A stretch of 54,178 bases of DNA, counting the filler, from Theionarchaea archaeon (GTDB lineage: Archaea > Methanobacteriota_B > Thermococci > Methanofastidiosales > SZ-28-30), in NCBI GenBank assembly GCA_018992565.1. It is 4 parts of 4 records of this genome, joined end to end, with 100 filler letters (N's around TTAATTAATTAA, not from the genome) between each part and the next. Parts side by side here need not be neighbours in the genome. Positions count along the whole stretch, not along the records: positions 45,842 to 49,988 come from JACVGW010000136.1; 3 more parts are not named here. One strand, written 5' to 3'. The notes under the pieces are model-generated. The model did no database searches. It was not told the DNA's origin and saw nothing but the letters and a program-made list of their open reading frames with translations. Below, piece by piece: positions 22,995 through 52,412 of the stretch (position 1 is its first letter; each line of letters opens with the position of its first letter). The position numbers were made by a program, and so were the translations under genes.

Positions 22995-23094
22995 NNNNNN
23001 NNNNNNNNNNNNNNNNNNNNNNNNNNNNNNNNNNNNNNTTAATTAATTAANNNNNNNNNNNNNNNNNNNNNNNNNNNNNNNNNNNNNNNNNNNN
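22995..23094. other. Artificial contig-join linker
   Basis: N44-TTAATTAATTAA-N44 six-frame stop spacer. Confidence 0.95.
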
Positions 23095-45741: not shown

Positions 45742-45841
45742 NNNNNNNNNNNNNNNNNNNNNNNNNNNNNNNNNNNNNNNNNNNNTTAATTAATTAANNN
45801 NNNNNNNNNNNNNNNNNNNNNNNNNNNNNNNNNNNNNNNNN
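45742..45841. other. Artificial contig-join linker
   Basis: N-TTAATTAATTAA-N. Confidence 0.95.
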
Positions 45842-49603: not shown

Positions 49604-49794
49604 ATAGACAATCCAGTCTTACCATCTCCTGACTTTGACCTATCGGAGAATAAGCACAAATCTGGGTTGCCACCTGTCAAAAGGGGTGATACTTCCTACC
49701 ACAATACTTCTGGCAAAAGAGCTGTTCCTGAATGTCATGTTGTCCCAGAAAACCATATATTATGATTTCGTAGAGTTTTTCTCAGGTGATTGAT

Positions 49795-49890
49795 ATGAAA
49801 GGACTGAAAGGATGGCCATTTGAACCTGTCAAAAGCATAGTTCCCTATGGTCTGCTGGGAGATGGCCCTGGTTCTGGAATGCCTTGTTGA
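49795..49890 (+). CDS. 31-aa small peptide MKGLKGWPFEPVKSIVPYGLLGDGPGSGMPC
   Basis: AGGTGA RBS, upstream ATATATTA TATA-like box, downstream terminator; below the ORF-track length cutoff. Confidence 0.65.
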   Translation: MKGLKGWPFEPVKSIVPYGLLGDGPGSGMPC

Positions 49891-49917
49891 GATTGAAATC
49901 GTTCAAAACTATACATT

Positions 49918-49957
49918 GGGGAGGATACACGAAGATCGTGTATTATCCCCTTTTTTT
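49918..49957 (+). terminator. Hairpin plus T7 terminator
   Basis: GGGGA-G-GATACACGA-AGA-TCGTGTATT-A-TCCCC followed by TTTTTTT. Confidence 0.7.
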
Positions 49958-49988
49958 CTAATTGCAGTATGCTGTCAATCTCAAGACG

Positions 49989-50088
49989 NNNNNNNNNNNN
50001 NNNNNNNNNNNNNNNNNNNNNNNNNNNNNNNNTTAATTAATTAANNNNNNNNNNNNNNNNNNNNNNNNNNNNNNNNNNNNNNNNNNNN
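49989..50088. other. Artificial contig-join linker
   Basis: N-TTAATTAATTAA-N. Confidence 0.95.
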
Positions 50089-50318: not shown

Positions 50319-52412
50319 ATGAAAGGAGAAAATTCCTCACCAAATCGGCTCATCCATGAGAAAAGCCCGTACCTTCTGCAGCATGCCTACAATCCCGTGG
50401 ATTGGTATCCCTGGGGGGAAGAGGCTTTCAAGAGGGCACAAGAACAGGAAAGGCCAATATTTTTATCTATAGGTTATTCTACATGTCACTGGTGTCATGT
50501 CATGGAGAAAGAGTCATTTGAAGACAAAGAAGTAGCGTTGCTGCTTAATAAGTGGTTTGTATGTGTAAAAGTTGACCGGGAGGAGAGACCTGACCTTGAC
50601 AGCCTGTATATGACAGTGTGCCAGGCCATGACAGGACGTGGAGGATGGCCACTCACTATTGTCATGACCCCTGACAAGAAGCCGTTCTTTGCAGGAACCT
50701 ACATTCCAAAGGACTCCAGGTTTTCACAGGCGGGGCTGTTGGAGATACTCCCCAGGATTCATGAGCTGTGGATCGGTAGAAAAGAGGATTTGGTTGAGAC
50801 CGCAGAGACTGTTATACAGTCTATTGCTGCTTCTGAAGTCCTGCAGGGAGAGGATCTGCACAGCTCTATTCTCGAATCTGGATATTCAGCGTTAGCAGAC
50901 TTGTTTGACGACGAATGCGGGGGGTTCAGCACTGCACCTAAATTCCCCATGGCCCATCACGTGCTCTTTCTTCTGAGGTACTGGAATAGAACCCAGAAGA
51001 AAAGAGCGCTCTTCATGGTAGAGAAGACGCTGCAATCAATGAGGCGAGGAGGCATCTATGACCATGTCGGGTTTGGAATTCACCGGTATGCTGCTGATAT
51101 GAACTGGCTGGTTCCTCACTTCGAGAAGATGCTGTATGACCAAGCTCTAACGAGTATGGCTTATATAGAAGCATACCAGGCTACTCAAAACCCCCTCTAT
51201 AAGAAGACTGCAGAAGAGATTTGTGAGTACGTGCTGCGAGATATGAAAGGCCCCGAAGGAGGATTCTATTCTGCTCAGGATGCTGATAGCGAGGGAAGAG
51301 AGGGGAAATTCTATACATGGAATGAAGCAGAGATAGACCAGGTAGATCATGCCGAATTGATCAAGATAATATTTGATATCAGGAAAGAGGGGAATTTTCC
51401 TCAATCTCAGGGTCAGAACATCCTCCATATGGGGGCGCCTGTATCAGAATATGCTGGACGTCTGAAAACATCGCCTCGGGAACTGCAAGATATCCTTGAA
51501 CACGCCAGGAGGCAGCTGTTGGAGATGAGAACCCAGAGAGCACCCCCTGGAATAGATGACAAGAGACTGACAGACTGGAATGGTCTCATGGTAGCTTCCT
51601 TGAGCAAAGGGGGACAGGTCTTTGGTAACGAAGAATATACGAAAGCAGCTGAAAAAGCAGTCACCTTTCTTTTGGAGACCAATATGAAAGATGAATCCGT
51701 ACTCTACCATCGATTCAGAGATAGTGAAGCAGCAATTCCTGGATTCTTGGATGATTATGCCTTCCTTGCCTGGGGCCTCCTGGAGTTGTATGAAGCCACC
51801 TTCACCCCGGGTTATTTACGGAATGCAGTACTGGTGACTGATTCCATGATAAAGCGTTTCTGGGATACATCGGGGGGTGGGTTCTATTTTACAGAAGATG
51901 GTACCTCTGCTATGACACGCAGGAAAATCTCGTATGATGGAAGCTATCCTTCTGGCAACTCTGTAGCAGTCCTGAATCTCTTGCGCCTGGCCCGTATGAC
52001 AGGAGATCACACGTATGAAAAAAGGGCAGCACAAACCATGAAAGCTTTTGGTCATGTGATTCGTCACCTGCCCTCGTCCCACACTATGTTCCTGGTGGGC
52101 TATGATTTTGCGTTGGGGCCATCGGCAGAAGTGGTCATAGCAGGATCACCGGGAGACCAGGATACTCAAGAGATGATACATGCTCTACGGAGGATATATG
52201 TTCCAAACAAGGTTGTTCTCCTGCGGTCTGGAAGAGATGATTTACTGGACGAAATCTGCCCCTTTGCAAAGGATCTCGTTCAAATCCAGGGGAAAGCTAC
52301 AGCTTACGTATGCCATGACTTTCAGTGTAACCTTCCCACAACGTCATCAGATGAGGTTGCCTATCAACTGAGAGAATTGTCTGCCCATTCTTCTCGCTGT
52401 AACAAAAACTGA
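50319..52412 (+). CDS. YyaL/SSP411 (DUF255) thioredoxin-domain protein
   Basis: [43 protein letters not shown]. Confidence 0.93.

Follow-up and report, generated by a model that had tools for sequence, protein, structure and literature searches.

The small gene at the end of one contig of a Theionarchaea archaeon raises the question of what its 31-residue, Gly/Pro-rich product might do, and which other gene it belongs with. The window, i.e. the whole stretch of 54,178 nt that was analyzed, contains parts of the genome G000 joined by linkers (N44-TTAATTAATTAA-N44) at 22995-23094, 45742-45841 and 49989-50088. These linkers join unrelated contigs, and genes on opposite sides of them (DUF255 at 50319, for example) are not genuine neighbors. 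The peptide gene occupies 49795..49890 on the plus strand, with the ATG at 49795, 31 codons, and a stop codon that ends at 49890. Its product contains LKGWPFEP at codons 4-11, followed by a variable linker, a P-x-G junction (PYG) and a Gly/Pro tail with an MPC end. On the same strand, the Shine-Dalgarno word AGGTGA is located at 49784..49789; the putative promoter (49747..49762), 30 nt 5' of the RBS, is composed of an A-rich BRE-like stretch and a TATA-like box (CCATATATTA, 49753-49762), which is kept in the sister species. These elements, the ORF and a T7 tract downstream were all found where a preliminary description of the locus had placed them. Among the family loci described below, an SD-type word (GAGGT, AGGTG or GGTGA) precedes 45/45 class A peptides, and TATA-like words are most frequent 25-30 nt 5' of it (22 matches in two bins, 45 loci). 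A 12-nt direct repeat of 49823-49834 is also found at 49671-49682, upstream of the promoter, which might be due to chance or be the remnant of an older copy. The peptide, the regulator protein P0001 (see below) and both membrane proteins of the window matched no Pfam or NCBIfam family above weak noise. In L001 and L032, Rfam found 0 matches; sequence look-ups gave no result for either the peptide or P0001, and no RNA dataset was present among the 23 sequencing runs listed.

The gene had been described as a self-contained unit whose downstream context is lost at the contig end, and both statements had to be given up. The peptide is located at the end of contig C149 of G000, the last 99 nt of which are the first 99 nt of contig C154. 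In the genome of a sister species of the same genus (G001), the locus lies on a single contig (L086). Moreover, public contigs from three runs, which may be the source DNA itself, extend beyond position 49988 and show no mismatch on the stretch. A convergent regulator gene has its 3' end here, and the final 46 nt of the peptide ORF and the entire hairpin behind it are antisense within that end. This gene encodes 297 aa: 283 codons are located on C154 (positions 1-849, L023), and the reading frame continues for 14 codons into the window, to the stop at 49845. The window thus holds the last 47 codons and the stop codon (49845..49988, minus strand), and 46 nt are shared by the regulator and the peptide gene, which are arranged tail-to-tail. 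Between the regulator start and a BMP lipoprotein gene on C154 (L023:850-1820) there are about 970 nt without a long ORF, partly conserved in G001 and with no Rfam match.

The single peptide was searched in 61 genomes at E ≤ 1, which gave 2, 6 and 9 matches in G000, G001 and G002, respectively. Five weak single matches elsewhere (E 0.055-0.65) were taken as chance; the two of them that were inspected, L004 and L005, contain no small family ORF. A 17-row peptide profile gave 4, 8, 12 and 0 matches in G000, G001, G002 and G003. After five duplicates were removed from 62 sequences, 57 distinct Gly/Pro-rich peptides of 27-48 aa remained, including 45 of class A and 12 of class B. Each class A peptide was collected tail-to-tail with a double-Lrp regulator, and the range given for the peptide is that within the genomes and loci examined. 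Class A has the layout MxxLKGWPFEPL, linker and G/P tail, and by eye no secretion signal is present in any of its 45 members, including the window peptide. Class B has a start that by eye is hydrophobic and signal-peptide-like, an acidic linker and a G/P tail. The lineage-specific tail of about 10-13 residues follows the P-x-G junction, which is found 8-15 residues from the end in 29/45 class A and 3/12 class B peptides. Of the 45 class A peptides, 44 have a penultimate Pro, 22 end in Gly, 11 end in Cys, and 21 have any Cys after the block. The terminal Cys emphasized earlier is therefore no family feature.

The conserved block also shows the signature of coding sequence. Over its nine codons, the 45 peptides show minor-allele shares of 0.153, 0.079 and 0.40 at codon positions 1, 2 and 3, so that third-position variation dominates; all four Gly codons, all four Pro codons and both Leu codon boxes are used. 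The paralogues with a conserved leader and a variable core and the codon-level conservation, both of which the preliminary description had proposed to look for, were thus found, and its proposal of an undescribed archaeal peptide family holds for 45 distinct homologues. The peptide gene is real, conserved and uncatalogued, and it is one half of a peptide-regulator cassette.

Several further arrangements were observed around such peptides. Orphan class A peptides exist (L088 and L018), and L143:8-1114 contains three tandem class A genes with different tails, the middle one followed by a remnant of the regulator C-terminus and 3' end. An identical 12-aa G/P tail is encoded by two small ORFs of G000, at C115:7213-7308, which is tail-to-tail with a double-Lrp-like gene of about 365 aa, and at C18:6310-6399, which has no such gene beside it. 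Other peptides accompany a distant double-Lrp-like subfamily of about 360 aa (G000:C17:6796-6894, C144:2655-2750 and C147:58084-58278); the last of these is divergent, not convergent, and has a signal-like start. A 27-aa peptide (G000:C138:29324-29407, and L049) contains the unit KLGGGPGVPT twice, is identical in G000 and G001, and is convergent with a regulator 125-139 nt away.

The convergent protein is predicted to have a tandem Lrp/AsnC fold, wHTH-RAM-wHTH-RAM in a single chain. Its AlphaFold model (pLDDT 94.2, pTM 0.90) contains two units, each with a helix bundle and four strands; the orthologue P0002 also has 297 aa and is 88% identical. A profile of 68 regulator sequences matches Lrp/AsnC regulators, including PH0140 (4e-8) and LrpA (5e-4). 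In the Pfam scan, two HTH_24 stretches were found in the paralogue L014, where HTH_24/HTH_AsnC exceed the cut-off, and none in P0001; no TPR family was found in the scans of nine regulators, and NCBIfam gave no match for P0001. The best whole-chain structural match is NirDL (4czc; Z 10.5, rmsd 4.3, 230 residues aligned, 10% identity), and single Lrps come next with Z of about 7 per unit. Foldseek gave no match at E ≤ 0.001, NirDL being first with E 2.5e-3; NirDL was absent among the sequence-profile matches.

The pairing of the two genes is frequent. A convergent G/P-tailed ORF was found for 29/65 regulators in G000-G003 versus 11/1403 other long ORFs in G000, a rate that is inflated because the regulator profile was built from peptide-paired regulators. 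To be counted, a regulator ORF needed an intact 3' end followed by 100 nt or more, and its partner needed at least six G/P in the last 14 residues; two of the 11 control ORFs are, by eye, further double-Lrp-like genes. An RBS-based recount with a wider window gave 32/65 pairs (the null of 11/1403 being kept from the first count), and left 33/65 regulators with no such partner; the single copy in G004 is also unpaired. From the reverse view, 11 of the 19 RBS-led G/P-tailed small ORFs in G000 are tail-to-tail with a double-Lrp-like gene, with C144 judged by eye and C115 only a weak profile match. In metagenomes, 36 loci of the window regulator's clade were obtained, two of them without downstream DNA, and the pair is present in 32 of the other 34, several of which are near-copies. 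In the two unpaired loci, the peptide follows a read-through regulator (L128) or the peptides sit on a second regulator (L143); the pair of L117/L118 likewise sits on a second regulator. The stop-to-stop distance is -2 to +4 nt in 39/57 pairs, with 24 at +4. In a tree of 82 regulators, reconstructed in quick mode and with long branches, the window regulator belongs to a clade of 28 rows (SH-aLRT 100), in which 26 class A partners occur.

The regulator profile gave 25, 28, 33 and 2 matches in G000-G003, fragments included. At E ≤ 1e-15 it was found in 5/133 genomes of the phylum sample and in 0/97 of the family f5. There are 290 clusters (50% identity) that score E ≤ 1e-10 with the profile; look-alike clusters occur in other archaeal phyla, and only the first three rows reach 0.9. 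The named homologues are from Theionarchaea/Methanofastidiosia, and the archaea that carry the peptide family are uncultured organisms of sediments. No relative of the regulator clade was found on viral contigs, and a scan of genome contigs gave only two loci, both already in the set. Several cassettes (flanks of L113-L148, inspected by eye) are located among what we take to be defense or mobile-type genes, including RadC-, HEPN-, AbiJ-, TIR- and VapB-like ORFs and a DNA methylase fragment.

Clustering of 266 neighboring ORFs from 59 loci (1.5-9 kb flanks) gave 147 clusters. Besides the regulator, small wHTH-like proteins (clusters of 9 and 5) and a small protein with a Cys motif (6) recur, and most of their genes diverge from the regulator start. 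The two upstream membrane genes, which had been noted as possible context, do not appear to be members of the unit: the sister-species locus lacks the second of them, and nothing in the other loci is related to the orthologue of the first. In this clustering the first gene was represented by its G001 orthologue, a singleton, and the window's own copies were not included.

Block and tail have evolved differently. Among 37 pairs whose regulators are long, the block is 0.67-0.79 identical in all bins of regulator identity, whereas tail identity rises from 0.42-0.44 in the lowest bins to 0.74 in the highest. The Mantel rho with the regulator is 0.47 for the tail (p 0.002) and 0.12 for the block (p 0.18); the tail does not go more closely with any one segment of the regulator than with the others (partial r ≤ 0.09). 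A constant block with a lineage-tracking tail would suit a shared handle combined with a private ligand; linkage and shared descent alone, however, would produce this pattern in any linked segment that evolves freely.

Behind the peptide stop codon, a stem of 14 positions (49918..49950, plus strand) is antisense to the codons GIIHDLRVSSP in the last strand of the regulator, and the T7 tract (49951..49957, plus strand), a candidate terminator of the peptide transcript, is antisense to its EKK codons. The hairpin reported earlier as 14 bp was confirmed in position, and its stem proved to include one G.A mismatch and one G.U. The 81 nt after the peptide stop fold at -22 kcal/mol (z -3.33, 0/200 shuffles as good); the hairpin was missed by a simple terminator scan. 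For 31/45 class A loci the motif was located, and the 14 from other clades were excluded. Across 30 distinct loci, 10.2 of the 14 positions form Watson-Crick pairs versus 5.9±0.26 after synonymous re-coding (maximum 6.6 in 500), and 81% of cells pair in the stem register versus 34-54% in slid registers. Two-sided changes number 36 versus 17.5±3.9 (0/500 shuffles), in a shuffle that ignores relatedness and for a structure derived from the same sequences. The T count in 9 nt is 6.43 versus 5.55±0.15 under synonymous re-coding, so the tract is largely, not wholly, explained by the Lys/Glu codons of the regulator. Since the pairing goes beyond synonymous re-coding and the two-sided changes beyond the shuffles, the terminator hairpin is probably selected and dual-coded inside the regulator coding sequence. 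It may also be a DNA operator, a reading that is kept because G.U (1.13) barely exceeds A.C (0.77); upstream of the peptide genes, palindromic operators are not enriched (5.19 versus 5.14). The hairpin is clade-limited: a strong one (z ≤ -2) follows 7/29 genome pairs and 0/12 class B pairs. A covarying hairpin in a coding sequence is unusual, because Term-seq in four archaea, in the part of that study cited here, showed U-tracts without hairpins (PMC8716108).

The overlap itself might be the purpose of the arrangement. The peptide RNA must cover roughly 70-110 nt of the regulator 3' end, and the hairpin pairs and two-sided changes within that coding sequence would also fit a convergent antisense RNA, or a peptide that is a mere target of the regulator with its job elsewhere. 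We consider this unlikely, because the block is conserved at the amino-acid level across regulators that are <20% identical and the penultimate Pro is nearly constant; the hairpin, strong behind 7/29 genome pairs and no class B pair, is not a common element of the family. The preliminary description had proposed a RiPP precursor or a processed signaling peptide, and the second option was rightly offered. The first would require LKGWPFEPL to be a leader read in trans by an RRE enzyme, with a signal or an antimicrobial as the product. The layout of a conserved leader and a variable core agrees with it, and G000 is rich in rSAM/SPASM-like genes (50 ORFs, with many Cys-rich precursors), so that modification in trans is possible. 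K-x-W near the start, a motif picked post hoc, is found in 5/42 Cys-rich precursors versus 47/3875 small ORFs, and one precursor (C30:26636-26776) shares DG-x-IKPLG with class A linkers. However, a leader common to the peptide and the rSAM precursors is not significant, as the leader profile misses these precursors (best E 11), and in class B the same tail type follows a signal peptide-like start. The true partner, the convergent tandem-Lrp protein, had been missed in the preliminary description, and of the suggested maturases none is a recurrent neighbor: no rSAM, YcaO, LanB/C/M, lasso B/C, peptidase or exporter recurs beside the 59 family loci. With few terminal Cys, and with a Cys after the block in less than half of class A, the RiPP reading is weak, and we regard it as improbable. 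An rSAM trio does lie 3 kb downstream of the peptide, past the BMP lipoprotein; it has its own Cys-rich 35-38-aa ORF directly upstream, and this clustering is limited, among the 59 loci, to the peptide locus and its G001 orthologue. These genes (L023:3190-7850 in C154: the Cys-rich ORF, two rSAM/SPASM genes and a B12-type rSAM, kept in G001) are a separate RiPP cassette; the best NCBIfam match of its two rSAM/SPASM genes is CefB, under the cut-off. As an observation on its own, several Cys-rich ORFs beside rSAM/SPASM-like genes of G000 start with MK-x-NKK(L/T)W.

The top structural match to NirDL, a siroheme decarboxylase, would agree with a double-Lrp protein that is an enzyme or chaperone reusing the Lrp fold, as in NirDL/AhbAB, with the peptide as its substrate. 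Such a role has only the slimmest chance of being correct: NirDL is simply the available structure of a single-chain double-Lrp, the sequence profiles match transcription factors instead, both HTHs are kept, and no invariant catalytic column was found across 68 sequences. The many profile matches per genome (25-33) and the recurrent small wHTH neighbors also fit regulators. The family might otherwise be functional while the window copy is decaying, which is highly improbable here. The sister-species orthologue has ACG for ATG, also in a public contig, and five residue changes in codons 14-21, so the window copy may be under relaxed selection. The PLGE junction of close relatives is changed to PYGLL/PYTLS, the regulator frame extends for 14 codons within the peptide gene whereas in most relatives it ends at the junction, and a decayed 55-nt tail/junction copy lies just upstream of the peptide in G001. 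Against this, the ATG, RBS, TATA-like box, block and tail of the window copy are all intact, and codons 2-13 differ between the two species by synonymous changes only (3/3). A peptide-and-receptor switch is most likely when compared with a modified-peptide precursor, as judged from sequence.

Comparison with known systems showed the closest cassettes to be the RRNPP(A) systems of Bacillota and phages (Rap-Phr, PlcR-PapR, NprR-NprX, Rgg-SHP and AimR-AimP), as they are described in the cited parts of PMC12700828 and PMC10518010. In both, a cytoplasmic regulator is located beside a small propeptide gene, many paralogous pairs occur per genome, the C-terminal part is variable, and some propeptides have a signal peptide or, here in class B and by eye, a hydrophobic signal-like start. 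The archaeal receptor is a tandem Lrp/AsnC protein rather than HTH plus TPR, and the double-Lrp regulator does not contain the at least five peptide-binding TPRs that define RRNPP(A). The host is an archaeon and the system is known here from sequence alone; the paired genes are tail-to-tail with abutting stops, and class A has a non-hydrophobic conserved block in place of the signal peptide. The leaderless communication peptides of the RopB-SIP clan likewise have no secretion signal and are located beside their receptor; in the cited part of PMC10518010, their mature forms are hydrophobic, 8-9 aa long and encoded divergently from a TPR receptor, whereas the present ones are 27-48 aa, Gly/Pro-rich and convergent. 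In Agr-type systems, AgrB and a conserved Cys/Ser ring residue are characteristic, and neither was found: AgrB (PF04647) was detected in 0/5 genomes (the control rang in 1/14, none over the cut-off), and Cys after the block is not constant. No C39 peptidase was found in the five genomes of 84-99% completeness.

The regulator shares the unit of wHTH plus ferredoxin-like RAM with the Lrp/AsnC proteins (PH0140, 7fby/9w4v; LrpA, 1i1g; ST1022; AsnC). This unit is present twice, two being fused per chain (280-350 aa in the family), whereas the typical protein is a single oligomerizing unit of about 150 aa; the identity is 8-14%. The known effectors of Lrp/AsnC proteins are single amino acids, and the titles of the Lrp structure matches name Ile/Leu/Gln complexes. 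We know of no linked peptide genes of Lrp/AsnC regulators. NirDL has the same single-chain double-Lrp architecture; however, it is a heme d1 synthesis enzyme and not an expanded family with peptide partners. In the literature searched (listings and abstract starts), no description of a tandem-Lrp/peptide pair was found. The novelty is in the components: a tandem Lrp and a tail-to-tail peptide gene are not known to be combined in any family, while the logic resembles RRNPP.

In the switch proposed here, the small gene would be expressed from its own promoter, its transcript ending at the hairpin and U-tract written into the opposite gene. The peptide would combine a shared N-terminal block (LKGWPFEPL in class A, a Sec-like signal peptide in class B) with the lineage-specific Gly/Pro tail, and the tail would probably be released by a host protease. 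The tail is predicted to bind the single-chain double-Lrp protein in place of an amino-acid effector, and binding would switch the DNA binding of the regulator at its predicted targets, each paralogous regulator reading its own peptide. The idea that the cognate peptide, through its tail, binds or modulates the double-Lrp protein encoded next to it is reasonably probable. A complex prediction of the peptide with the regulator (alignment A4, without the last 14 residues) scored 0.03 against a mark of 0.32, the controls not being folded, and thus speaks neither for nor against binding. The class A peptide might act either inside the cell or between cells. The 12 class B partners, with the tail behind a signal-like start, have the layout of exported propeptides; since class A has no signal peptide, its export is a prediction only.

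According to the cited part of a 2026 paper, quorum sensing in archaea is still 'largely unexplored' (PMC13464002); those archaeal signals that the cited part of PMC12240190 names are small molecules. More speculatively, and with considerable doubt, Theionarchaea might run dozens of parallel gene-encoded peptide channels with the doubled Lrp fold as the peptide receptor. One branch would export the Gly/Pro tail by Sec; the window branch would use the invariant LKGWPFEPL as an address for an export or processing route, end its RNA at a hairpin terminator co-encoded with the last strand of the receptor, and diversify by duplicating the peptide together with the receptor 3' end. The pair is directly testable, with a small protein, a confident fold and dozens of natural cognate pairs that form a specificity matrix. 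If true, it would represent a gene-encoded peptide signaling or control system outside the TPR and histidine-kinase types.
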